Of a stretch of 64,000 nt of DNA, positions 3,498 to 51,389 are shown in pieces. The stretch comes from Candidatus Saccharimonadales bacterium. Its GTDB lineage: Bacteria; Patescibacteriota; Saccharimonadia; Saccharimonadales; EFPC-124. The notes below the pieces were generated by a model. That model was not told the origin of the DNA. It did not search any database and saw nothing but the letters and a program-made list of their open reading frames with translations. Position 1 is the first letter of the stretch. Each line of letters starts with the position of its first letter. Position numbers and translations under genes: made by a program. The stretch is taken from contig DASTDY010000058.1 in NCBI GenBank assembly GCA_035710125.1, positions 704 through 64,703 of the forward strand, written 5' to 3'.

Positions 3498-6400
3498 CTA
3501 TTGAAGCGCCACGCACTCGGCGCCGAGCAACCCAGCGACCGCTGTTTGCAAATCGTTATGCGGGTCTATGGTAAACGGCAAACGCATTGCCGACTTCTTT
3601 TCGGCTCCAAGCACCAATACCACCTCGTGATCGCCTGGATAATTGTTAAAGGTTTGCTTTAGTTTTAAAAGCGCATCGTGGTCATCGGGGTCTTTTACGT
3701 GCACAAACAACCGCGGGCGGGGCGGGGCTGCCTCTGGCGGCTTAGGGTTAGCTTGCGCCTGGTACACTGGCTCTACCGGCTTATATACCACTTTTTTACC
3801 GCCATCGTTGGCCTGGGTTGCCATATTTTTACCCCCAGCTTGTGGCACCTTCATGTTTTTGCCAGTTGATTTGTAATTTTCTAGTTCTTCAGGGGTCACA
3901 ATAGTAATGGTGTCGGCTATTATTTTTATGTCGTCGGTTGTCTTGCCGTCGCGGTCTTTGGCATTCACCTTACCCTTTACCTTAATAACTGTATCTTGCA
4001 GAAGCTTTTCGCCGATTTCTTCGTAGGTTTTCGGAAAAACAATAACTTCCATTTCGCCAGATTTGTCTTCCATTTTTACAAAGGCCATTTTAGTGCCGCT
4101 TTTGGTTAAAATGCTACGGGATTCTAAAATAATACCACCGACTGTTGCTGGTTTGTTGTCCATTTCTTTTGCGAGTTGGGCAATTGGTAGGGTCTGCTCT
4201 GTAAAATAGGCGTCGTACTTATCGAGCGGATGTGCGCTTAGGTACAACCCTAACAATTCGCGTTCCCAAAGCAGCATTTCGTGCTCTTTTACCCTGGTAG
4301 GCGCAGACTCTAGCTTAAGCGGGGCAACCATAGAATCGAGCAAATTACCAAATAGGTCGGTCTGGCCAGTCGCTGCATCTTTTTGCACCTTGCTGGCATA
4401 AGATAAAATAGTGTCGAGGTTAAATAATAGGTCGCTGCGCTCACCCATGGAGTCGAACGCACCAGCCTTGATAAGGCTTTCTAGGTTTTTGCGGTTTACA
4501 ATGCGCACGTTCACACGCTTTAAAAAGTCTTCGAGGCTCTCGAATTGCTTTTCTTGTCGGGCACGCAAGATTTCTTCTACGGCATTGGTGCCCACGTTCT
4601 TTACTGCATTAAGGCCAAAACGAATCCGGTTAGAGTCTGGAACCACGGCAAACTCTGCGAACGACTGGTTGATGTCTGGGTTGCTCACCGCAAGGCCCAT
4701 GTGCCGGCATTCGGCGATTTCTATAGCTAAACGGTCGGTGTCGTCTTGGTCGCTGGTCATAAGCGCCGCCATAAATGCCGCCGGAAAGTGCGCCTTTAGG
4801 TAGGCAGTCCAGTAAGAGGTCATACCATAGCACGCAGAGTGCGACTTGTTAAAACAGTAGTCGGCAAACCCGAGCAGGTCTTTCCAGAATTTCTCTATCA
4901 CCTGCTTTGGCACGCCATTTTTTACTGCGCCGTCAATAAACTTAACCTGCATTTTCTCCATGACGTCGAGCTTTTTTTTACCGATGGCCTTACGCAGCGT
5001 ATCGGCCTCTCCGCCGGTAAACCCACACACATCGCGCGAAATCTGCATCACTTGTTCTTGGTACACCAACACGCCAAAAGTATTGCCAAGCGCTGATTCC
5101 ATTAACGGGTGGGCGTAACTAACTTTCTCTAACCCGTTTTTGCGCTTAATAAAGCTATCTGTCAGGCCAGCCGAGAGTGGCCCTGGGCGGTACAGCGCAC
5201 CCATGGCGATCACGTCGTCGAACAAGGTTGGCTTTAGCTCACGCAAATAGCGCTTCATACCGGCAGATTCAAACTGGAACACGCCGGTGGTGTCGCCCCG
5301 GCCAAGCAGCTCGAAGGTTTTTTTATCGTCGAGTGGGATCGTACTAAGGTCTATATCGACATCATGCACCTTTTTTATTATGCGCATAGCATTCTTAATA
5401 ATGGTAAGGTTGCTGAGGCCCAAAAAGTCCATTTTAAGTAGGCCAAGCTCCTCTATCTGGCCCATCGGAAACTGCGTAGACACCACGCCTTTTTGCGCCA
5501 TTTCTAGCGGCACATACTGCACGAGCTCACCTGGCGCAATCACCACGCCACAGGCATGCACGCCGTGGCTGCGGATGGTACCTTCTAGCCTCATTGCAAG
5601 GTCGATCACTTTTTTAGACGTTGGGTTACCTTCGTACTCTGCCTTAAGGTCGGGGTCTTTTTGGATCGATATTTTTAGGGGAATATGCCTACCCTGGATT
5701 GGCTGCGGGATCAGCTTAGCAAGGCGGTCTGCATCGCCATACGGCACCTCAAGCACACGGGCAACATCGCGCACAGCCGCCCGGGCCGCCATTTTGCCGA
5801 ACGTCACAATATTAGATACGCGGTCGGAGCCGTATTTATCGGCGCAATATTGGATAACTTCGTCGCGGCGAGTGTCGGCTATGTCTACGTCTATGTCGGG
5901 CATGCTAATACGGTCGGGATTTAGGAAACGCTCGAATAACAGGCCGTATGTTAATGGGTCTAGATCGGTAATCCTGAGCGCATACGCAATAATTGAGCCA
6001 GCAGCCGAGCCTCGCCCCGGGCCAAAAATAATTCCTTGGTCTTTGCCCCAGTTTATAAAATCCTGCACGATTAACATGTAGCCGTTAAAGCCCATGCCGT
6101 CGATCACGCGTAGCTCATAGTCGGTGCGCTCAAGCACCTGTTGGTCAACCATGTCTCGCACCTCTTGGATAGTCATGGTTGCAGCTTTAGCGCGTTCAAC
6201 CTGGGCGTACCGCTCGGCGAGCCCTTGGAACACGAGCTTATCTAAAAAGGTCTTTTCGGTCTCGCCGTCTGGCACGGGGAACTTTGGAATTAGTATGCCA
6301 CCCAGCTCTAGCTTAACGTCGCAACGGTCGGCGATTTCTTTAGTGTGCGCAATAACCTCGGGGTACTCTTTGCCCCACCTGGAGATTATTTCTTGGGGGG

Positions 6401-20154: not shown

Positions 20155-22119
20155 TCACTTTTTGCTTTTTAGTTCGGCAATGAGGTCGCGCAGCTCCGCC
20201 GCGGTTTCAAACTGAAGGTTTGCGCTGGCAAGCTCCATCTCGGCGGTTAGGTCTTTTATAACGCGGGCGTATTCCTCTTTTGGAATCTTATTAATATCGC
20301 GCTTGACCATTTCAGCCTCTTTAGGAATGATCGCCCGCAAGCCCTCGTCTATTGCCTTTTTAACACCTGTTGGCACAATGTTGTGCTCTTTATTGTAGGC
20401 TTCTTGAATTGCACGCCGGCGCGTGGTCTCATCGAGCGTAAGCTGCATGCTTTTTGTAACCGAATCTGCATACATTATTACGCGCCCTTCTTGGTGGCGG
20501 GCTGCACGGCCCACAGTTTGGATAAGCGCGCTTGCTGAACGCAAAAATCCTTCTTTATCGGCATCCATGATTGCTACTAAGCTTACTTCTGGCAAATCTA
20601 GACCTTCCCGCAACAGGTTAATGCCTACCAATACGTCGTACACACCTAGCCGCAGATCGCGCAGAATGTCGGTACGATCCAGCGTATCGACATCTGAATG
20701 CAAATACGCAGTCTTAATGTTTAGGTCTGTAAGATACTCTGTAAGGTCTTCTGCCATGCGCTTAGTGAGCGTGGTTACAAGCACGCGCTGGTTCTTTTTT
20801 GTGGTCTCGCGGATCTCGGCAATTAGGTCGTCTACCTGGCCTCCAGTTGGCCGGATTTCTATAGGCGGATCGAGCAGCCCAGTGGGGCGGATCACCTGTT
20901 GGGCAGGGGCGGGGCTGCGGCTTAGCTCGTACTCGCCAGGGGTAGCGCTGACATAAATTACTTGGTTTACGTGGCGCTCGAATTCGGTAAATGTAAGCGG
21001 CCGGTTGTCGAGCGCGCTTGGCAAACGAAAACCATGCTCCACTAAAATTTCTTTACGGGCGCGGTCGCCGTTGTACATGCCGCGTACTTGCGGCAAAGTC
21101 ATGTGTGATTCGTCTACAAAAAGCAAAAAATCGTCCGGAAAATAGTCGAGCAGAGTTGCGGGCTGTTCGCCAGGCTGACGGTTAGTGAGGTACCGGCTGT
21201 AGTTTTCGATACCTTTTACAAAACCGGTTTCTTCGAGCATTTCTAGGTCGAACTTAGTGCGTTGTCCAAGACGCTGTGCCTCTAGCAGCTTATTGTTTTG
21301 CTCGAACCATTTTACGCGCTGTTCGGACTCCTCGCGGATTTTCTCTATTGCTTGGGCTAGTTTTTCGCGCGGCGTTACATAGTGCGAGCCAGGGAAAACC
21401 GTTACGACGTCCATGTCTTTTAAGATCTCACCGGTAAGGGGGTCTATGTGGGTGATACGCTCTACTTCGTCGCCAAAAAATTCTACGCGGTAAGCAGTTT
21501 CGGAACCGGCCGGAAAAATATCTACCACATCGCCGCGCACGCGGAAAGTACTGCGGTGAAAGTCTATATCGTTGCGCTGGTATTGGATATCACTCAGCCA
21601 CCGCAAAAGCTTATCTTGCTGGCGGCGTTCGCCCTTTTTAATGGTGATTGCCATCTGGCCGTAATCATCTACCGAGCCAATACCGTAAATGCAGCTCACA
21701 CTGGCAACAATGATTGTATCGCGGTTGGTAAGCAGCGAGCTGGTTGCGGCATGGCGAAGGCGGTCGATTTCTTCGTTGATTTTACTGTCTTTTTCTATAT
21801 ATACGTCAGAGCTGGCGATGTAGGCTTCTGGTTGGTAGTAATCGAAATAGCTAACAAAGTAATGCACTTGTGCATCAGGAAAAAACTGCTTGAACTCACT
21901 ATAAAGCTGCGCTGCAAGGGTTTTGTTGTGGCACAACACTAATGTAGGCACTTGCCGCTTGGCAATGATATTTGCCATGGTGAATGTCTTGCCAGATCCT
22001 GTTACACCAAGCAATGTCTGTTCGCGCTCACCTTTGTCTAGCCCATCTACTAGCTGCGCAATTGCAGTGGGCTGGTCGCCAGTTGGTTCATATTTGGTAA
22101 CTAATTTAAATTGGGACAT
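20155..22119 (-). CDS. uvrB: excinuclease ABC subunit B
   Basis: [26 protein letters not shown], Walker A GVTGSGKT, helicase motifs and a C-terminal UVR domain (FETAAELRD). Start set at ATG 22119. The 159 upstream codons of the ORF-track entry run into the GC-rich island and are not UvrB-like. Confidence 0.93.
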
Positions 22120-22126
22120 CTTTTTA

Positions 22127-22135
22127 ATTGTAGCA
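22127..22135 (-). promoter_or_regulatory. extended -10 box TGCTACAAT, 7 nt upstream of the uvrB ATG (leaderless-type promoter)
   Basis: The minus strand reads TGCTACAAT-taaaaag-ATG. No SD is possible in 7 nt. Confidence 0.45.
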
Positions 22136-22180
22136 GAGTTCGGGTAACCAATAATGAGACCGGCATCTTTGTGGGGAGTA

Positions 22181-22208
22181 TTGACATTTTGTTTAAATGT
22201 AGTATGGT
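22181..22208 (+). promoter_or_regulatory. putative promoter of GC-rich cassette 1
   Basis: TTGACA (22181-22186), 16 nt, then TATGGT (22203-22208). This places the TSS downstream of ATG 22204 and so favours the GTG 22243 start. Confidence 0.35.
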
Positions 22209-22242
22209 GGGTACACCATCCATCGATTGTTTGGAGTTGCTC

Positions 22243-22740
22243 GTGAGCAGGGAAAACAGCGCCGAACTGGCTACTGTCGCAGGGCCGGTCATCGGGCAGG
22301 TCAACAAGGACGCCACAGCAAAAACCCGCAAGACACGGATCCGCAGAACACTGATCTGCATCGTCCTCGTGGCTGTCGTGGCCATCCTCACGTACATGGT
22401 CAAGATCGCGATCGACGCCGAGAACAACGCGAAGGCCAGCAAGATCGCTGCCGTGCAGAAGTTCGGCGATGACCGCGGCTGGAAGCACACTGGGCTGTGG
22501 GACATCAACAGCGACAACACCGTGATCGGCCAGGTTTCCCTGGGCAGGTGCGTCTACGACGTCAGAGCCCAGGCCGACCGGCCGGCCGAACTGCAAGTGA
22601 CTCTGACCTCCAGCGAAAGCCCCCAGAGCCAGGCCTTCTGGACGTTCCAGATCGCCAAGCTGACCGCAGACGACGTGAAGGCCAGAGCCGACGATTACGG
22701 CGTGACTCGCTGCTTCTACGCCAAGAAGCCCAAGTCCTGA
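22243..22740 (+). CDS. orphan GC-rich ORF 1: single-pass membrane protein (165 aa), unknown function
   Basis: GGAG at 22233-22236 lies 6 nt before GTG 22243 (alternative ATG at 22204). Codons overwhelmingly end in [21 protein letters not shown] follows a basic stretch KTRKTRIRR. About 110 aa lie C-terminal to the TM. No recognisable domain. Confidence 0.6.
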
Positions 22741-22754
22741 CCATCGTGGTGGCA

Positions 22755-22782
22755 GGGCGGCGTCGTACCCTCGACGCCGCCC
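22755..22782 (+). terminator. GC-only hairpin after cassette 1 (11-bp perfect stem, no U tract)
   Basis: GGGCGGCGTCG-taccct-CGACGCCGCCC. A second small hairpin TCGCC-aagcca-GGCGA plus TTTTTT follows at about 22799-22820. Confidence 0.55.
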
Positions 22783-24735: not shown

Positions 24736-24782
24736 ATTTTTATTCGCCCAAACCTGGGTGATGTGCCAAAGGAGTGATTAAA

Positions 24783-25280
24783 ATGCCCAGTGCCATGTTG
24801 GAGCTTCAGAAGATGCTCCAAGAAAACTTCCAGAATCATGTCCTGGTAAAACAGGGTAACGACTGGAACGTATGGTTTACTGGCGAAGACTGGCAGAAAA
24901 GCGAGGCTGAAGTAGCTGAGCTCGACAGGCGGGAGAAGGAAGATCCCTTCGACTTCGTTGAGCGCTCCTTCAAAATCGCCCGTGTGGTAGCCGAGCCCGA
25001 CGGTGCAATTAGCCGTTTCGACCTGGCCTACCACAACGAAGCGCAGCGTTCGTCCCTGACGGTCATACCTGGCCTAAAGGCGTTCCTGCGAGCGCTCGAA
25101 CTGGTGTGGGCTTTTACGCCCGCCGACGACGCCGACGTTAACGTGCGCTTTGGGTGCATGGTTGACGCAGTGGTACTCGCGTATGATCCGAGACACTACT
25201 GGAGCGGCGAGCGCTATCCTGTACGCGTGGGGCGTTTTACGCACGACCCCAAGCGTGACGTGCTCACGCACCGCGTATAA
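24783..25280 (+). CDS. orphan GC-rich ORF 2 (165 aa), soluble, unknown function
   Basis: AAGGAG at 24769-24774 lies 8 nt before ATG 24783. Composition is G/C-biased relative to the flanks. No TM and no recognised motif. Confidence 0.55.
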   Translation: MPSAMLELQKMLQENFQNHVLVKQGNDWNVWFTGEDWQKSEAEVAELDRREKEDPFDFVERSFKIARVVAEPDGAISRFDLAYHNEAQRSSLTVIPGLKAFLRALELVWAFTPADDADVNVRFGCMVDAVVLAYDPRHYWSGERYPVRVGRFTHDPKRDVLTHRV

Positions 25281-32149: not shown

Positions 32150-32557
32150 TTGCGCATTCACACTGGCCCGATCCAAACGAATTCGGACCAACAGAATCAG
32201 CTCGACGCGTTTTGGCTCGCTGCCACCATGGAGAACGACGCGAAGATCCTCTTGGAGGTCAAGCGAGCAACACGGCTCGTCCCACGGTCGTTCACCCTAC
32301 AGCTCAATGGGCGCACCGTTGCATGTACGTTGCAGCGGTTTGTGCTTGAAGAGCAGAACATCATCTTGGCGACTATTCCGCCAGTCGAAACCGAACGAGT
32401 ATGGCCACGCGACATCCCCCAGCCTTGCGTGGTGATGTTCACTCGCATCGGAAGCGAACGCTGGCAAGCTGCAGAGTTTATCGTGAGGCTCACCGGCGGG
32501 CCACTCACCAAGATACAGCTACTCTCGCTCATGTTGGGCGAACCAACATCCCGATGA
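32150..32557 (+). CDS. orphan GC-rich ORF 3a (135 aa), unknown function
   Basis: AAGGAG at 32139-32144 lies 5 nt before TTG 32150. Codons are G/C-ending biased. No recognised motif. Contains GSERWQAAEF, resembling the G.ERW.VV block of 3b/3c. Confidence 0.5.
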   Translation: MRIHTGPIQTNSDQQNQLDAFWLAATMENDAKILLEVKRATRLVPRSFTLQLNGRTVACTLQRFVLEEQNIILATIPPVETERVWPRDIPQPCVVMFTRIGSERWQAAEFIVRLTGGPLTKIQLLSLMLGEPTSR

Positions 32558-32633: not shown

Positions 32634-32664
32634 GTCGCCGCCCGAAACCAACTCGGGCGGCGAC
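32634..32664 (+). terminator. GC-only hairpin after ORF 3a (12-bp perfect stem)
   Basis: GTCGCCGCCCGA-aaccaac-TCGGGCGGCGAC with no U tract, followed by an abrupt switch to AT-rich DNA. Confidence 0.5.
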
Positions 32665-32794: not shown

Positions 32795-33271
32795 GTGTTG
32801 GACAAGCTGAGTGACAACACCGACTCCACTCCGTTGCACTTTCGGGTTGCGCCTCCGGAATACCTGAAGGTTGTGAAGATCGAAGAGGTCAAGTGGCCGG
32901 TAGACCAGACGGCGCTGCAAGCGGCGCAAAATGCGTTCGCCGACCACCTGAAAGAAATGGTCAACCCCATCGGCGAAGAAGCGGTCATCCCACCGGTTGT
33001 GATCGATGGGCGGGAGTGGCAGGTGGTAAGCCTGATCGCCCGTGAGATCTTCTTGGCGACTGTGCTTCGGCACGGTGCCGAGTATCTCATGGTCGACCAA
33101 GAATGCTCAAGCAGCATGCACGTCAGGTTCGGCGCTGAAGCCCACGGCTACTCCAGTGTTCCTACGCCTGGCCGTGAACCTGCCGACGCAACCGACTTGC
33201 AACAGGCAGCTGCAATCCACGAGCTGCAAATGGCGACCGCCACCTACAAGATGATGGAGTTCTGGTCGTAA
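32795..33271 (+). CDS. orphan GC-rich ORF 3b (158 aa), unknown function
   Basis: GTG start. G/C-ending codons. Block DGREWQVVSLIAREIFLATVLRHGAEYLMV...FGAEA parallels ORF 3c. Confidence 0.5.
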   Translation: MLDKLSDNTDSTPLHFRVAPPEYLKVVKIEEVKWPVDQTALQAAQNAFADHLKEMVNPIGEEAVIPPVVIDGREWQVVSLIAREIFLATVLRHGAEYLMVDQECSSSMHVRFGAEAHGYSSVPTPGREPADATDLQQAAAIHELQMATATYKMMEFWS

Positions 33272-33314: not shown

Positions 33315-33725
33315 GTGTCTACCCCTCCGCCCCACCGGTCGGTCGTCCACACCGAGCTGTTCGAGGTGAACATCGACCCAGAAGTCGTGAAAAAGGCGAG
33401 AGGCCTCTTCTTGTTGGGGCAGTACGCACAGGACGTCCACGAGGCATCACTGGACATCGGCTCCAACACCTTCAGGCTTGGTGGCGAACGTTGGGAGGTA
33501 GTGGCCACCGAAGACCTCGGTCTGACACTCCTGATGTCCGAAGCACGGTACATGCTGGTTTCTACCGTGACCGTGCTGCCTGCCTACCCCCTGGTGGAAT
33601 TCGCCGAAAAGGCCGACTGGTCTGAATCCGGCGCGTTTGTCTCGGCTCAGGCAGAGCAGCGAAGGGCGGCCATGAACAGGCTCCAACCCATGCTACGAAA
33701 GCTTGAGCGTCGGCACCGGGCCTAG
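33315..33725 (+). CDS. orphan GC-rich ORF 3c (136 aa), probable distant paralogue of 3b
   Basis: AAGGGAG lies 4 nt before GTG 33315. Block GGERWEVVATEDLGLTLLMSEARYMLV...FAEKA. Basic C-terminal helix RRAAMNRLQPMLRKLERRHRA. Confidence 0.5.
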   Translation: MSTPPPHRSVVHTELFEVNIDPEVVKKARGLFLLGQYAQDVHEASLDIGSNTFRLGGERWEVVATEDLGLTLLMSEARYMLVSTVTVLPAYPLVEFAEKADWSESGAFVSAQAEQRRAAMNRLQPMLRKLERRHRA

Positions 33726-45870: not shown

Positions 45871-46773
45871 CTAGTGCCGGCCGGTCAGCACGTCGGCAAG
45901 CACATGCGGGTCGGCATAGCGAAACACAATTTTGTATATTGCCTGTGCAACTGGATAACGACTTAAGTCCACGTTTTTTTGCAGTTCGTGGAGCGTGACT
46001 AGGCCCTCGCTTTTAATATGTTCGTCGGCGATGCGTTCGGCTAACGATTTACCAATGCGGTAATTAAAAGATTCCTCGCTAAAACCTGTGGCTAAAAGAT
46101 CACCTAAACCCGCCAGGCCTTCTGCCGTAAGCGGCTGGGCATGCATGTCTGACAGCATTCGCTTTACCTCTGCCAAAACTAGCACTACCATTTTACCTTT
46201 TGCATTCAACCCTAAGCCCAGGCCATCGATAAGGCCAAACCCAATGGCATACACGTTTTTAAGCACCGACGCCAACGCAACACCATGGGTATCTGCTGAA
46301 TATTCTAAATACAAATTTGCAGCCGCAAAATGATCGTAGAATACGCTGAACCACTTACGGTTAGAAAGCGCAAGTACGGCGTAAGAGGGGCGGCTGCGTT
46401 CGATCTCTCCTGCAATCATTGGACCGTACATGACACCAATGTCGTAATGCTCCGGCAGCTTGTCGCGCAAAACTTGGTCCATAGTTACGAAGCCAGGCTC
46501 AACACCTTTGGCACATGTTACAACCACCCGCGGTTCGTGGGGGTGGGCCGCCTTGCGGAGTTGTTTGGCTACGTCGTTCACTGCCCAAGATGGTACACAC
46601 ACCAACAAAATTTGGCAGATTCGTACAAGGTCTTCTATGCTGCCGGTGGTAGTTCTAGTGGGGTCGCGGTCGTAATACAACACTTGCAAATGAGATTTGG
46701 TTAAAGCATTGCCGAGCGCCTTGCCAAGCTCGCCTGCGCCAATTATTCCTACCTGGCTCAAAATGTTTTCCAT
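45871..46773 (-). CDS. gpsA: NAD(P)H-dependent glycerol-3-phosphate dehydrogenase
   Basis: IIGAGELGKALGNAL Rossmann motif and the GpsA-like core. Start moved to ATG 46773 (MENIL) because the first ATG (46782) lies inside the TGCTACAAT -10 box. Confidence 0.8.
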   Translation of the reverse strand: MENILSQVGIIGAGELGKALGNALTKSHLQVLYYDRDPTRTTTGSIEDLVRICQILLVCVPSWAVNDVAKQLRKAAHPHEPRVVVTCAKGVEPGFVTMDQVLRDKLPEHYDIGVMYGPMIAGEIERSRPSYAVLALSNRKWFSVFYDHFAAANLYLEYSADTHGVALASVLKNVYAIGFGLIDGLGLGLNAKGKMVVLVLAEVKRMLSDMHAQPLTAEGLAGLGDLLATGFSEESFNYRIGKSLAERIADEHIKSEGLVTLHELQKNVDLSRYPVAQAIYKIVFRYADPHVLADVLTGRH

Positions 46774-46780
46774 TGCTAGC

Positions 46781-46789
46781 ATTGTAGCA
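46781..46789 (-). promoter_or_regulatory. extended -10 box TGCTACAAT, 7 nt upstream of gpsA ATG 46773 (leaderless-type)
   Basis: The minus strand reads TGCTACAAT-gctagca-ATG. Confidence 0.4.
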
Positions 46790-46899
46790 AAAATAAGGGT
46801 AAGCAGTAAGAAGAATGTGATTTTACAGTTGTTAAGTAAATATGGCTGTGTTTAAATGGATCGCGGTAATGTTGACTCACTTCAGGAGGTGAAGGCCAA

Positions 46900-47550
46900 A
46901 TGCTCTCCTCTGGGACCAAAGAGCTGATCCATGGCTTCAGTCCGGTGCCAGCGCTGGTGGCTTACGGCGTATTGACGCTGGAACCCACGGTGGAGCGGAT
47001 GCTCCAAACCCACGCCAAGAGGTACCAACGGGGCGAGGAGTACGCGCCGCACAACCACGCTCTGGCTGTGGTGAAGGGCTGGACAGAGGCGCTGCTGGAC
47101 GACAGCTCCGAACCGCAGCCGGCAGCCGGGTACGCGCAGCACGAACGAACTGGCGTGAACGCCAGGCCGGACCTGCTGTACATGGTGGGCGCAATGCTCA
47201 CCACGTTCTGGGTGCAGCACTCGACCGAGTGTGGCAACCTGATCTCGCAGGGCGCCATGGCCGAGATCGAGAACGCGTTCTTCCGTGCGTCGTACGCCTA
47301 CGGCGTGGGCGTCGAGCTGATCGAGAACATCTCTTGGCCGTCACACCAGGCGGCCGTGAGCATGTTCATGCACACGATCATCGTTGCCAGAGGCACCGAC
47401 GAGTCCTACGCCCATGCGGTGGACTTCTGGCAGAGGATCGTGGAGCCGATCGGTGGGGCGGACCTGAAGTCAACCGTCGCTGAGATGCTCGACCATCTGA
47501 CGCCCAGGCACGTGTCCGATCTGTTCCTGAGCGCCAAGGACGCCAGCTGA
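46900..47550 (+). CDS. orphan GC-rich ORF 4 (216 aa), soluble, unknown function
   Basis: AGGAGG lies 10 nt upstream of ATG 46900. Upstream are TTGTTA (46829) and TGT-TTAAAT (46849-46857). Nearly all codons end in G/C. No recognised motif. Confidence 0.6.
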   Translation: MLSSGTKELIHGFSPVPALVAYGVLTLEPTVERMLQTHAKRYQRGEEYAPHNHALAVVKGWTEALLDDSSEPQPAAGYAQHERTGVNARPDLLYMVGAMLTTFWVQHSTECGNLISQGAMAEIENAFFRASYAYGVGVELIENISWPSHQAAVSMFMHTIIVARGTDESYAHAVDFWQRIVEPIGGADLKSTVAEMLDHLTPRHVSDLFLSAKDAS

Positions 47551-47554
47551 TACC

Positions 47555-47589
47555 CCGCGCCAGTCTGCAACCCATGCAGGCTGGCGCGG
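47555..47589 (+). terminator. GC-rich hairpin after cassette 4 (9-bp perfect stem)
   Basis: CCGCGCCAG-(17 nt)-CTGGCGCGG, 5 nt after the stop codon, with no U tract. Confidence 0.45.
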
Positions 47590-47617
47590 CAGTCTAAAAT
47601 TATTTGCCTATGCACCT

Positions 47618-48964
47618 CTATTTTTTATGTAACGAGAACCGCTCGTAATGCACTTGCCCGTCTGGCACGCCTAGCTCTTTTAGTGCTTGCTTTACGCCAG
47701 CCATCATAGGTGGTGGGCCGCATAAAAATACATCTCGCTCTGCAATATCGGGCACTAAACGTGCAATCCGCTCTTTGTCTATATAGCCTTGTTCTTTTGA
47801 TTTTTCTTCGCTCAGTACAGTATAAATTGGCATTTGGATACGCTCGCCGAACTGCGTAAGCTCAGATAGCAAGGCTGTATCGGCGGCTGTCCTATTGCCA
47901 TACAGCAGCACGGCGCTATTTTTGCCGCCGGCTTCTGCCCGCTCTTCGATCATAGCCCTAAGCGGCGTAATACCGATGCCACCTGCGATATAAGCAACCT
48001 TGCTTTTTACTTGTTTCTCGTGGGTGAATGCCCCATGAGGCCCGCTCACCACAACCGGTGTACCAGGCGCAAGGCTTGGGATACCATTCGTAAAATCGCC
48101 AAGTGCGCGAACAGTTAACCGAATATGGTCGCTACTTGGCAACGCCGACAACGAAAATGGATGCTCCTGCCAGAACCTATGCTTATCTAAAAAGCGCACC
48201 ATCACAAACTGGCCGCCTTTGGCTGTAAAGCGCTGTAGATTTTTACCGCTAATGTACACGGAATTAGCAGTCGGCGTTTCGGCCACTACTTTTTGCACAG
48301 TAAAATGGTGCCACCAAAATAGCCACAGTGGGCGGCCGAACCGCCACACTAGCATATTAACCGCTGTAAATACATACAGAGCCATCCAATAAATAGCAAA
48401 TGTGGGGTTGATTAGAAAATCGGAGCCATTGGCGAATTGATGGAACGGTACCAGAATAATGGCCGCATAATTAAGCATATGCACCGCATACCACAGCTCA
48501 AACCGTAACCGTGCTACCACCATAACAATAGATGTCACTGCAGTTGCAATAAACAATATCTCGGCAATCACTGCGAGCCACACATAAGGCAGGCCGAGCA
48601 CTTGCTGTGCGCCTTCGGGCAGGACGCCTCCAGTGAGCAGTGTGCGCGTTATAACCATCAACGACGAATGCAGCAATATTAAAGCCAGCACTGCAATGCC
48701 GTTACGCCTATGAAAAATAGCCAGCCTATCCAAGCCAAAAATCGGCTCTAACCACCCCGCCCGTCCCATGAGCACAAACTGGGTGAGCGCACAAAATGTA
48801 GCAAGCAAGCCGAATAGCCGCGCCAAGGCGTGCCCTACGGCTACAATATCGCCGCTTGCCAGCTCCCCCGTTGCGCCGCTCACCCAAAAACCAGTAATTA
48901 CTGCACCATTAAGTGCCCAAAAGGCCCAGGCTAACTGCTTTTTTATGGTACTACTGCGTGCCAT
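47618..48964 (-). CDS. ferric-reductase-like transmembrane domain fused to FAD/NAD(P)H-binding domain (NOX/FRE-type oxidoreductase)
   Basis: Six TM segments containing several His residues; heme-ligand positions were not assigned. HPFSLSA (FAD-binding), GGIGITPL and CGPPPM (NAD-binding). Confidence 0.75.
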   Translation of the reverse strand: MARSSTIKKQLAWAFWALNGAVITGFWVSGATGELASGDIVAVGHALARLFGLLATFCALTQFVLMGRAGWLEPIFGLDRLAIFHRRNGIAVLALILLHSSLMVITRTLLTGGVLPEGAQQVLGLPYVWLAVIAEILFIATAVTSIVMVVARLRFELWYAVHMLNYAAIILVPFHQFANGSDFLINPTFAIYWMALYVFTAVNMLVWRFGRPLWLFWWHHFTVQKVVAETPTANSVYISGKNLQRFTAKGGQFVMVRFLDKHRFWQEHPFSLSALPSSDHIRLTVRALGDFTNGIPSLAPGTPVVVSGPHGAFTHEKQVKSKVAYIAGGIGITPLRAMIEERAEAGGKNSAVLLYGNRTAADTALLSELTQFGERIQMPIYTVLSEEKSKEQGYIDKERIARLVPDIAERDVFLCGPPPMMAGVKQALKELGVPDGQVHYERFSLHKK

Positions 48965-48965
48965 G

Positions 48966-49385
48966 TTAATCGACTACTTGCACGGTGCCGCGCATAAATT
49001 GCTTGTGGGGCGTGCAAAGGTAATCGAATGTGCCGGTCTCGGTGAATGTATGGCTCACTGTGCCTCCTCGGCCAAACGTTGAAGCGGTAACTGGCAGACC
49101 GCCGGTATTGCCAGCATCAGTAGCTACAACATTGTGCGGCACGGTGTCTTGGTTTACCCACGTGACTTTTGTACCCTTTTTAATCTTTACTTTTGCTGGG
49201 CTGTAAGAAAGGTCATGCATGGCAATCTCTACTTCTTTTTTGTCGGTTGCATCGGTAAATTCTGCCGAAGGCGTGGTTATAGGCGTGTTTGTTTGCTTAT
49301 TGTTGCTAAGCACCACCCATACTCCAATACCTAAGATCACCACAACGCTGACAACGATAATCCAGATAATAGATGTTTTTCGCAT
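48966..49385 (-). CDS. membrane-anchored cupredoxin (plastocyanin/amicyanin-like type-1 copper protein)
   Basis: N-terminal TM. Ligand pattern VPHNVV ... YLCTPHKQFMRG (His, Cys-x2-His-x3-Met). Confidence 0.8.
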   Translation of the reverse strand: MRKTSIIWIIVVSVVVILGIGVWVVLSNNKQTNTPITTPSAEFTDATDKKEVEIAMHDLSYSPAKVKIKKGTKVTWVNQDTVPHNVVATDAGNTGGLPVTASTFGRGGTVSHTFTETGTFDYLCTPHKQFMRGTVQVVD

Positions 49386-49388
49386 GGC

Positions 49389-50549
49389 CTACGCCTTTTT
49401 ATCTGCTTTTTTAGGGAATAGCCGCACACCGATCGCAACAATTGTCGCGCCCAGCCCCATTAAGACAGCAAAGAACACTACGAATCCGCCAATAAACGGA
49501 ACTAATCCAAGCAACGACAGAACAAGTAGTCCCAAGAATAAACTCACTACACGACGGCCGCGTGATGGCCAATGGAGTTTTTCTACGATCACCCAACCAA
49601 GCCCGTAACCAGCGACTGCAAGTGCGCCAATGAGACAAATGGTAAGCATTAAAGCCAAAATAATTGCGAGCGGCAGTCCAAACAAGCTGGCAAACAACAA
49701 CACAATAAGCGCTGGCACGAGCAAAATACTTGCGGCTCCGCCCGTTGCTGAGGCTATTGGCCTCTTGCGGAACACAGCTGCCACAGCGTCGAATCCGCGA
49801 GGAGCAAGGGCAATTGCAGCAACACCAATCATAAACATTGCGATTAAGCCGTAAAATGCACCCCAAATCATGGCGGCTGTTTTGTTTGCGGGCCCGTTAT
49901 CTGTTGTTTGTGTATATTTAGTCTCGCCTTGTACTACTGCACCATCTGCCATTGTTGCCGGCGTGCTACCGCTGTAAGTCAGGTTACCTTGCACTATAAG
50001 CTTGGAGTCTAGGTTTAAGGTGCTAAATTCACCATCTACGTTGCGCCCTACATTGCCGGCTAGCCTCATTGCCACTGCGTTGCCCAGGATATCCCGCCCA
50101 ACACTACCATCTACAACAGTGCGGCTAGACGCAAATGTAAAATCGCGGCCAATTTTACTGTCTTGCTTTACATTTATGTTTTCTGCAAAAACAGTCGCGC
50201 TACCGCCCACGCTTGCGGCAACCTCAACGTCTACACCGGCTACACGGACATCGCCCATGACATTACCGTCGATATGTACGATCTGGCCGGCGCATATTAC
50301 ATCGCCCTCAACCGTGCCAGTTATATTTACGTTTTGGCCAGCGCAAAATAAATCGCCCTTGACCGTGCCTGCGACTGTCACTGTGTTGCCAGCAATGTAA
50401 AGTGAATTGTTTGTTGAATCACCAGCAGCTAGCGATGGCGTGTCACCGCCTCTTACATCTGTTGCGTGCGTCACGCCAATCCATGCAAAGCTAATTAATG
50501 CCCCTAAACCTACAATGAGTCCGATCGAGAGAAGTGCCCTTCGTTTCAT
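49389..50549 (-). CDS. bactofilin-like beta-helix repeat protein with C-terminal multi-TM domain
   Basis: Signal peptide. Repeats such as GTVKGDLFCAGQNVNITGTVEGDVICAGQIVHIDGNVMGDVRVAG. Four C-terminal hydrophobic segments. Confidence 0.6.
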   Translation of the reverse strand: MKRRALLSIGLIVGLGALISFAWIGVTHATDVRGGDTPSLAAGDSTNNSLYIAGNTVTVAGTVKGDLFCAGQNVNITGTVEGDVICAGQIVHIDGNVMGDVRVAGVDVEVAASVGGSATVFAENINVKQDSKIGRDFTFASSRTVVDGSVGRDILGNAVAMRLAGNVGRNVDGEFSTLNLDSKLIVQGNLTYSGSTPATMADGAVVQGETKYTQTTDNGPANKTAAMIWGAFYGLIAMFMIGVAAIALAPRGFDAVAAVFRKRPIASATGGAASILLVPALIVLLFASLFGLPLAIILALMLTICLIGALAVAGYGLGWVIVEKLHWPSRGRRVVSLFLGLLVLSLLGLVPFIGGFVVFFAVLMGLGATIVAIGVRLFPKKADKKA

Positions 50550-50585: not shown

Positions 50586-51389
50586 TTACGATTTTGCAAC
50601 AGCCCGTTGGCGAACTGCTTCGTATAAAAGCAGGGCGGCAGAGGTTGCAACATTCAAAGAGTTTACTTTGCCGGCCATAGGTATACGGACTCTTGTGTCG
50701 GCCTCGCCAAGCCACGCATCGGAATGGCCGTACTTTTCTGAGCCAACAGTGAGCGCCACTCCACCAGTGAGGTCGGGGGTAGTAAACAGCGTATCAGTAT
50801 CTGGGGTAGAGGCAATAACTGCAATTTTATTGCGCCGCAACCAGGCGAGGGCCTCTTGCGGCGAGGCATTGGCAACCGGCACCGCAAACACTGCCCCTTT
50901 GCTGGCACGGATAACATTAGGGTTACCCCAGTCGGTTACCGCCGACACGCTAATAACGGCGTCTGCTCCAGCGGCGTCGGCAGTGCGGAGCATTGCGCCT
51001 AGGTTGCCTGGCTTTTCTACAGACTCACAAATTAAAATAAACGGATTTGGCTTTAATGCTAGGTTTTGCAGATCGGTTTTTGGCGCAGGAACAATTGCCA
51101 ACCAGCCATCGGGCCCTTCGCGATACGCGACCTTTTCAAATACTGGCCTACTGCATTCTACTGCCTCTACTCCGTCGGCAGTTAGCCGTGCGAGTAGCTT
51201 GGTTTGATCTGTACCACCCATTAGTTCTGGGCAATAGTACAGTGTTTTTATGCGTACACCGGCATCGAGCGCACATAATAATTCTTCAAAACCATCTACG
51301 AGCGTTAAGCCAGATTGTTCTCGTTCCCGCCGCTGACGCAATGACAACAAAAATTTTACTGCCGGATTTTGTTTACTTGTGATTATCAT
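50586..51389 (-). CDS. TrmH/SpoU-family rRNA/tRNA methyltransferase (RlmB-like)
   Basis: N-terminal substrate-binding region plus SpoU motifs VEKPGNLGAMLRTADAAG and IPMAGKVNSLNVATSAALLLYE. Confidence 0.85.
   Translation of the reverse strand: MIITSKQNPAVKFLLSLRQRREREQSGLTLVDGFEELLCALDAGVRIKTLYYCPELMGGTDQTKLLARLTADGVEAVECSRPVFEKVAYREGPDGWLAIVPAPKTDLQNLALKPNPFILICESVEKPGNLGAMLRTADAAGADAVISVSAVTDWGNPNVIRASKGAVFAVPVANASPQEALAWLRRNKIAVIASTPDTDTLFTTPDLTGGVALTVGSEKYGHSDAWLGEADTRVRIPMAGKVNSLNVATSAALLLYEAVRQRAVAKS

Follow-up and report, generated by a model that had tools for sequence, protein, structure and literature searches.

Genes of atypical GC content are routinely read as recent arrivals by horizontal transfer. 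In the model of Lawrence and Ochman, compositionally atypical alien or ORFan genes are said to be recent transfers that ameliorate, and phage morons, a term linked with Hendrix and Juhala, reportedly are modules of promoter, open reading frame (ORF), and terminator with a deviant base composition that have been inserted between two genes. Here we analyze a 64,000-nucleotide stretch of contig DASTDY010000058.1 from a Candidatus Saccharimonadales bacterium (the window), in which an ORF of 216 amino acids (aa) at 46900..47550 on the plus strand, hereafter the orphan gene, has a GC content at third codon positions (GC3) of 0.85. An earlier reading made from the letters alone (the sequence-only reading) had taken this gene for an imported high-GC orphan. 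That was partly right on appearance and wrong on age: the composition does look foreign, but the gene is neither private to this genome nor recent, as orthologues at 30 to 74% identity occupy the same slot, next to a gene for a NOX-like ferric reductase, in at least six other lineages. With moderate confidence, we favor an account in which the gene forms an autonomous unit that has been inherited vertically at one slot, encodes a fast-evolving protein, and has its composition held by a fixation bias.

The orphan resembles a moron in having its own promoter, ORF, and hairpin, a composition unlike that of both neighbors, and a position between unrelated genes in the opposite orientation. Unlike a moron, it lies in a bacterial chromosome among core metabolic genes, has no relative in PHROG, BFVD, or IMG/VR, and has stayed at one slot across deep lineages with a deviant composition that is not decaying. 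With alien genes it shares a GC content and codon usage off the genome norm, the lack of an annotated family, and a narrow taxonomic range; it differs in showing no amelioration despite synonymous saturation of its flanks and in the apparent filtering of changes between A/T and G/C (W<->S). In short, the composition is atypical, but relatives carry the gene at the same locus and no donor could be identified.

The composition of the orphan was examined first against the rest of the window. The ORF, which opens with ATG and closes with TGA, has a GC content of 0.64, with values of 0.62, 0.44, and 0.85 at the first, second, and third codon positions (GC1, GC2, and GC3). Mean GC3 over the 66 largest nonoverlapping ORFs of the window is 0.51 with a standard deviation (SD) of 0.08, placing the orphan about 4 SD out, and the GC content changes in a sharp step, from 0.38 in 46801-46900 to 0.61 to 0.67 over 46901-47600 and 0.47 beyond. 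TTC and ATC account for 100% of their codon families in the orphan, CTG for 74%, and AAG for 80%, against 29, 27, 16, and 35%, respectively, in bulk genes; G/C endings are favored evenly in all codon families, including AAG, GAG, and CAG. This is the codon usage of a high-GC genome and is Actinobacteria-like. The sequence-only reading had noted that nearly all codons end in G or C, as the GC3 value bears out, and at least five overlapping spurious ORFs, of which we counted six of at least 50 aa in other frames. Its description of the gene as the most strongly GC3-skewed one holds as to the strength of the skew but not the ranking, since the orphan is effectively tied with a plus-strand ORF at ~22231-22740 (GC3 0.87 over 22336-22740).

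The composition persists in all 8 of the orthologues, which have a GC content of 0.64 to 0.68 and a GC3 of 0.77 to 0.91, compared with 0.47 to 0.55 and 0.44 to 0.62 in the flanks. Between the same lineages the NOX protein is 68 to 95% identical and its synonymous sites are saturated (proportion of synonymous differences, pS, 0.69 to 0.82); because high GC3 has been kept in spite of this saturation, the GC-richness appears to be actively maintained and not to be the fading signature of an import. At amino acid columns conserved in at least 7 of the 8 sequences, G or C occupies the third codon position in 157 of 176 cells (89%), and lineages differ in which of the two they carry there. This comparison suggests that third positions have turned over without drifting toward the genomic 50% A/T. 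The closest locus tells the same story in its substitution pattern. Between the window and L001, synonymous divergence (dS) is 0.30 for the orphan, 0.43 to 0.56 for 5 of 7 flanking genes, and 0.27 and 0.11 for the other two; the transition-to-transversion ratio (ts/tv) is 1.0 in the orphan versus 3.1 in the flanks, and C<->G changes make up 22% of the differences in the orphan versus 3.8% in the flanks. A low ts/tv with a high share of C<->G changes is the pattern expected when W<->S changes are filtered while changes between G and C (S<->S) are free. The relatives are rich in GARP and poor in FYMINK residues, and the window protein shows clear FYMINK depletion only. Given the uniform G/C endings together with this amino acid shift, the pressure looks nucleotide-level and not tRNA-specific; selection for tRNA adaptation in translation is thought unlikely for the same reasons, all codon families shifting alike and the amino acid composition shifting too. 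A-to-G hypermutation was rejected, as it would raise ts/tv and the observed ratio is low. Taken at the sequence level, the data would fit a fixation bias that holds the orphan GC-rich, and they fit selection on GC and biased gene conversion equally.

The orphan is a genuine unit of transcription, complete in itself, having a promoter, Shine-Dalgarno site, ORF, and GC-rich hairpin of its own. An extended -10 promoter was read from the letters at 46829..46857 on the plus strand (TTGTTA at 46829-46834, a 17-nucleotide spacer, and TGT-TTAAAT at 46849-46857); this predicted promoter scores 8/12 against the consensus and is missing from the output of the consensus scanner because the threshold of that tool is 9. 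TTGTT[AT] and TGnTTAAAT-like boxes occur at the same upstream distance in L001, L003, L006, L007, and L008, with variants in L004 and L005. The 5' leader (46858..46899, plus strand) carries a conserved GGnnGCGGnAnnGTTGnC element, which is GC-rich, and an AGGAGG ribosome-binding site at 46884-46889, 10 nucleotides upstream of the ATG at 46900. The leader reads ggatcgcggtaatgttgac in the window and aggcggcggcatgttgcc in L003, those of L006, L007, and L008 resemble these, and the leader and start region are recognizably kept upstream of every orthologue. Beginning 4 nucleotides past the orphan stop, an unstranded GC-rich hairpin (47555..47589) with a 15-bp stem (14 Watson-Crick pairs and 1 G-U) and a 5-nucleotide loop fills the space between two convergent stop codons; it has a predicted free energy of -34.5 kcal/mol (z = -5.7 against shuffles) and lacks a proper U tract, and it is likely a bidirectional terminator or 3'-end stabilizer. 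A long GC hairpin between convergent stops, with a stem of 12 to 19 bp and a sequence that differs per locus, was found in all 7 of the loci, the window included, that have enough downstream sequence to be read, and compensatory stem changes were seen between L007 and L008 (C-G to T-A) and between the window and L001 (G-U versus G-C). The window contains no tRNA genes, and a scan with Rfam gave only chance matches below threshold.

The hairpin invites comparison with integron cassettes, in which a short promoter-proximal ORF is likewise followed by an imperfect palindrome; the orphan differs in carrying its own promoter and in not being part of an array. The segment 47501-47640 contains neither GTTRRRY nor RYYYAAC, and the sequence of the hairpin arm occurs nowhere else in the window. 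Readings as an integron cassette, a miniature inverted-repeat transposable element, or a repetitive extragenic palindrome were rejected, as there is neither attC architecture nor any repeated element in the window.

The gene call itself is right, and the orphan is a real gene. The sense frame is the sole frame open in 8 of 8 orthologous loci, and its ratio of nonsynonymous to synonymous divergence (dN/dS), taken over the first 111 codons, which contain no gaps, is 0.34, compared with 1.15 to 1.54 in four of the five other frames. The sequence-only reading fared well here: the promoter boxes, AGGAGG, and ATG all lie where it had placed them, the peptide strings that it quoted are present in the translation, the 216-aa gene does lie between gpsA and a NOX-like oxidoreductase (both neighbors confirmed by Pfam), and the sense frame that it had preferred over the minus-strand frames is favored. 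The GC hairpin that it reported after the stop exists as well, but with 15 pairs instead of 9 bp.

To the left of the unit lies gpsA, encoding NAD-dependent glycerol-3-phosphate dehydrogenase (45871..46782, minus strand; Pfam NAD_Gly3P_dh_N/C), which is divergent from the orphan, and to the right lies the NOX-like ferric reductase gene (47618..48964, minus strand; Pfam Ferric_reduct, FAD_binding_8, and NAD_binding_1), which is convergent with it. All family members could be placed on contigs (L001 and L003 to L008). L001, which carries the relative P0002, matches the window collinearly for 6 kb, with 90% of the nucleotides identical. In L003, L004, L006, and L007 the orphan is convergent with the 3' end of NOX, and the contigs of L005 and L008 stop before NOX; every member with an assembled downstream flank is thus convergent with the same NOX gene. 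Promoter, ORF, and hairpin recur at this one place, and the unit is therefore positionally orthologous across lineages. The gene upstream of the orphan is rarA/mgsA in L003 to L008, and rarA/mgsA lies between gpsA and the slot in L003 to L006 and in a further locus, L010. In the window and L001, rarA is missing at the slot and gpsA adjoins the orphan; tblastn found no rarA anywhere in the window. The endpoint of this deletion or relocation lies just upstream of the conserved -35 box, as seen by comparing 46783-46899 with L003, L006, and L010. The similarity matrices of the orphan, NOX, and rarA roughly agree, with L003-L007 as the closest deep pair in all three, and this congruence argues for vertical descent of the orphan.

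Within this stable position, the protein has changed quickly. It is 74% identical between the window and a relative where NOX is 95% identical, and 30 to 41% identical where NOX is 68 to 81% identical. Against L001, whole-gene dN/dS is 0.55, compared with 0.03 to 0.12 for the flanking genes, and from these alignments nonsynonymous divergence is estimated to be ~10 times faster than in the neighbors. The rate is uneven along the gene, with a dN/dS of 0.37 in the first 150 codons and 0.80 in the last 70. Nucleotide identity to L001 falls to 64 to 67% in the near-neutral C-terminal third (47351..47550, plus strand; delimited by nucleotide identity and dN/dS against L001) from 85 to 94% elsewhere in the gene, and several indels fall within the last ~70 codons. 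The core thus appears constrained and the C terminus to be evolving almost freely, which suggests that the C-terminal helix pair is nearly unconstrained or diversifying.

Searches for further relatives returned few. The family has 8 detectable members among ~15 billion proteins and would, on these searches, constitute a previously undescribed, very small, lineage-restricted family. An identical (100%) database protein is annotated as hypothetical in a metagenome-assembled genome of Candidatus Saccharimonadales bacterium; P0002 (72% identity) was the sole relative from a word-indexed search of 5.8 billion clusters, P0003 to P0007 (31 to 40% identity) came from an exhaustive phmmer scan of 1.84 billion representatives, and P0012 was added by profile search. 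Neither the 1.84 billion representatives nor the 5.8 billion clusters searched by word index yielded a homologue outside the NOX slot context, and scans of GTDB genomes and JGI metagenomes with the orphan alignment found no relative. No family was recognized by Pfam, NCBIfam, PHROG, or PADLOC scans of the orphan and its relatives, nor did the seven family members scanned against Pfam match even at E <= 10; the sequence-only reading had likewise found no motif that it could place, and the gene is an orphan by every profile library tried. A match to TIGR00297 (E = 0.16) is noise. Four very long proteins that the phmmer scan also returned, P0008 to P0011 (1478 to 2443 aa; E 6e-8 to 5e-4), are Ala/Thr/Asp/Gly-rich surface-repeat proteins that match one 50- to 90-residue stretch of the orphan several times over, and these matches were judged spurious. 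A literature search found no description of GC3-rich orphans in Saccharibacteria.

The orphan is predicted to encode an all-alpha soluble protein. Fifteen columns are invariant across the family, with members as low as 30% identical, and the invariant residues listed are P50, H53, G60, L65, G77, H81, L92, Y94, V96, G97, L100, W146, H149, and W177, among them three histidines and two tryptophans. AlphaFold was run on alignments of 7 and 8 sequences, each headed by a different sequence; the two models had pLDDT values of 84 and 88 and pTM values of 0.85 and 0.86, and both are all-alpha. The top Foldseek matches of model 1 are all globins (probability up to 0.8, TMt 0.5 to 0.59), with haemoglobin beta chains ranked first (E 0.55 to 2.5, TMt 0.42 to 0.59), and its best full-length superposition, a nonsignificant match, is on latex clearing protein (Lcp; TMq 0.59); the only nontrivial TM-scores of model 2 are with Lcp (TMq 0.46) and (leg)haemoglobins (TMt ~0.5, E ~6). 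H53 and H81, invariant and 28 residues apart on consecutive helices, resemble the E7/F8 pair of globins. Compared with globins and globin-coupled sensors, which it resembles in these histidines and in the haemoglobins at the head of the Foldseek list (E >= 0.5), the orphan protein has an extra C-terminal bundle of ~80 residues and no globin profile match (Globin, Protoglobin, and Bac_globin gave no Pfam or NCBIfam match at E <= 10). A sequence profile search of the PDB returned no globin, and its weak alcohol dehydrogenase (ADH)/epimerase matches (E >= 0.03) were rejected as chance. A globin- or Lcp-like identity is thus a tentative lead and not a classification. A haem-handling role would be biologically relevant, as Saccharibacteria are, to our knowledge, not thought to make haem.

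Several points weigh against the account that we favor, both on origin and on function. Neither orphan model had a significant Foldseek match in the PDB (all E > 0.5), and the globin and Lcp matches of model 2 are weaker than those of model 1. In hhalign the orphan profile reached a probability of only 0.5% against an 8-sequence MpaB alignment and 0.1% against P0013, the protein encoded in the L010 slot (0.2% against Skermanella MpaB); hmmsearch with the orphan HMM found nothing in P0013, and there is no DNA homology inside the two ORFs. The hhalign values leave haem binding as no more than a lead. That the orphan lies convergent with NOX is poor evidence for a functional link between the two. 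Most of the orthologous contigs are 1 to 6 kb long, and their assignment to Saccharimonadales rests on similarity of the flanks to the window. The L010 slot holds a gene that looks unrelated and the L011 slot none, and gene replacement at a hotspot is possible.

The L010 locus (contig Ga0105240_10000050), found by scanning metagenomes with the NOX alignment, is central to two alternatives. By NOX similarity (66 to 71% over the last 124 residues), it lies outside the orphan-carrying loci. Between NOX and rarA it carries a 329-aa gene (5409-6398, minus strand; GC3 0.75) whose product, P0013, matches PF09995 (MPAB_Lcp_cat, the MpaB/Lcp oxygenases) at E = 2.8e-11 with 44.4 bits against a cutoff of 23 and has no close homologue in the 5.8-billion-cluster database. 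A promoter and a hairpin similar to those of the orphan loci are present in this slot. The alternative that survives best, although we consider it improbable, is that the orphan is a drastically shortened and diverged MpaB/Lcp haem b oxygenase (PF09995, DUF2236), orthologous to this 329-aa gene. The shared slot, a similar hairpin arm, and like promoters (tttatgcTCTAAT in L010, tttatgcTTTAAT in L004) are consistent with this origin, as are the structural superpositions, which for both models reach their best full-length value on Lcp, and the predicted all-alpha fold with conserved histidines. In Lcp, a haem b oxygenase built around a 3/3 globin core, a proximal histidine is a haem ligand (PMC5522427); the LcpK30 structures (PDB 5o1l/5o1m) show this globin-core fold with N- and C-terminal helical caps. 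The active-site residues of the LcpK30 DUF2236 motif, R164, T168, and H198 (PMC5522427), are not mappable onto the orphan, which at ~215 aa is also shorter than the 280 to 400 aa of MpaB/Lcp proteins and lacks sequence or profile similarity to them; the negative Pfam, hhalign, hmmsearch, and DNA comparisons given above argue against common ancestry as well. The convergence of the structural matches with the presence of a PF09995 gene in the L010 slot is suggestive.

The main rival on origin, which we rate slightly lower still, is that the slot is a hotspot refilled repeatedly from an unsampled high-GC pool (a plasmid or phage of Saccharimonadales or of their hosts), so that the GC-richness is renewed by replacement. 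Here the different GC3-rich gene in L010 counts in favor, as does the break in DNA homology between L010 and the other loci, which ends ~50 nucleotides before the ORF and resumes 30 to 50 nucleotides after it. More distant relatives also vary at this place: in L011 (1174-3501; GC 0.42; NOX 56% identical) the slot is empty, gpsA coming straight after NOX across a spacer of 54 nucleotides, and in L012 (NOX 53% identical) the guanylate kinase gene gmk abuts NOX. At least five other GC-rich orphan ORFs between core genes of the window would fit such refilling too. Against it stand the agreement of orphan similarities with those of NOX and rarA, the promoter, leader, and hairpin common to the loci, the joint divergence of orphan and flanks when the window is compared with L001 (dS 0.30 versus ~0.5), and the fact that no family member was found elsewhere in a genome. 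The borders show no integrase, attC core, or repeat, a full-window integrase search not having been made. With L011 empty and gmk in the slot of L012, the orphan is restricted to a sublineage and is not a housekeeping gene; the conserved housekeeping role that would have undone the sequence-only reading of an acquired orphan is not seen.

It is very improbable that horizontal transfer brought the gene into this genome recently from a high-GC donor, for instance an actinophage or an actinobacterial host, and for this genome the idea is already contradicted. Codon usage and GC content typical of Actinomycetota and the sharp GC boundaries speak for it; tail-less GC hairpins are common in high-GC Gram-positive bacteria, and Saccharibacteria live on actinobacterial hosts. 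However, the orthologues share their slot across the other lineages in the face of saturated synonymous divergence in the flanks, their promoter is conserved, and no homologue was found outside the slot context or in phage, plasmid, and viral collections. Where the sequence-only reading had pointed to Actinomycetota and actinophages as the place to look for a source, we found no relative or donor among Actinomycetota-derived proteins, actinophages, plasmids, or viral contigs. The best match in the phage, plasmid, and viral set, a tblastn match in Microbacterium phage YellowPanda, was rejected, with E = 0.3 and a location inside an 891-aa protein.

That the true feature is a long antisense ORF or a noncoding GC-rich element can be dismissed almost outright: antisense frame -1 is wholly or nearly open in L004 to L008, as a by-product expected when TTA, CTA, and TCA codons are avoided, but does not stay open in the window, L001, or L003; frame -2 has a dN/dS of 0.32 because its wobble positions are shared with the sense frame, a known artifact, and is interrupted by stops in every locus; and the pattern GC3 > GC1 > GC2, the ribosome-binding site, and the start codon fit the sense frame alone.

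Vertical inheritance with a fixation bias remains the account that we prefer, and its steps may be put as follows. The unit lies head-on amid the core genes of a soil Saccharimonadales bacterium, is convergent with the NOX-like ferric reductase gene, and would have been passed down vertically at this one slot. A fixation bias would remove G/C-to-A/T changes and let G<->C changes through; the bias could be selection on the GC content of DNA or mRNA, or biased gene conversion. The unit may have entered the ancestor of the clade once, as a moron-like high-GC module; such a single ancient import is plausible and would fit the tail-less hairpin and the codon usage. The protein would be a globin-like, histidine-ligated cofactor protein, possibly haem-binding, that may share its redox context with the haem-dependent NOX and the cupredoxin encoded alongside.

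The NOX-like reductase gene opens a conserved codirectional block at 47618-50549 (1582-4509 in L003) that continues with a cupredoxin of the plastocyanin/azurin family and a membrane protein of the DUF8173/bactofilin-like type. The next gene in L003 encodes a SpoU methylase; the ORF in the corresponding position of the window is at 50586-51389. The reductase, cupredoxin, and DUF8173/bactofilin-like protein may constitute a module for extracytoplasmic electron transfer in an organism whose respiration is minimal. A scan with the NOX protein as single query found just one Chitinophagaceae protein, at 25% identity.

The window contains at least five further GC-rich ORFs that match no family, at ~22231-22740, 24774-25280, 32150-32557, 32795-33271, and 33315-33725. 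The first (plus strand), which probably starts near 22231-22243, stops at 22740, and has one hydrophobic segment, is followed by a GC hairpin at 22755-22782 and has a TGTTTAAAT box at 22190. The frame open antisense to it seems to lengthen the uvrB ORF (20155-22596) by ~160 codons: the UvrB domains do not begin before residue 168, and MSQFKLV near 22119 could plausibly be the genuine start. Pfam, NCBIfam, and PADLOC gave no match for the other four (plus strand; GC3 0.68 to 0.74), three of which lie together in a 1.6-kb islet flanked by minus-strand genes. Tail-less GC hairpins follow two of the GC-rich ORFs (22755-22782 and 32634-32664). BLASTP with the orphan and the ORFs at 24774, 32150, 32795, and 33315, leaving out 22231-22740, gave no match below E = 0.03. 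All six GC-rich orphan ORFs are on the plus strand, most genes of the window, including core genes, are on the minus strand, and the cumulative GC skew declines steadily along the window. From this layout, it is probable that the orphans face replication head-on.

It is a speculative but attractive extension, and on balance an unlikely one, that soil Saccharimonadales carry a class of autonomous orphan units, at least six of them in this window, whose Actinobacteria-like codon usage is actively preserved past synonymous saturation. If true, this would imply a gene-specific force favoring G/C, for which a translational regulon of codon bias tied to epibiosis on high-GC hosts, mRNA stability, and local biased gene conversion are candidates; we know of none of these having been described for bacteria of the candidate phyla radiation. 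The orphan would then be the best-documented member of the class and possibly represent a novel globin-like family that binds haem and is the partner of the NOX/cupredoxin module. A foreign-looking signature that persists at one chromosomal slot without ameliorating is unusual. Should the same hold for the other GC-rich orphans, composition-based calls of transfer in genomes of the candidate phyla radiation would be misleading, and an unrecognized selective or recombinational force would be acting on a specific set of genes in obligate epibionts of high-GC hosts.

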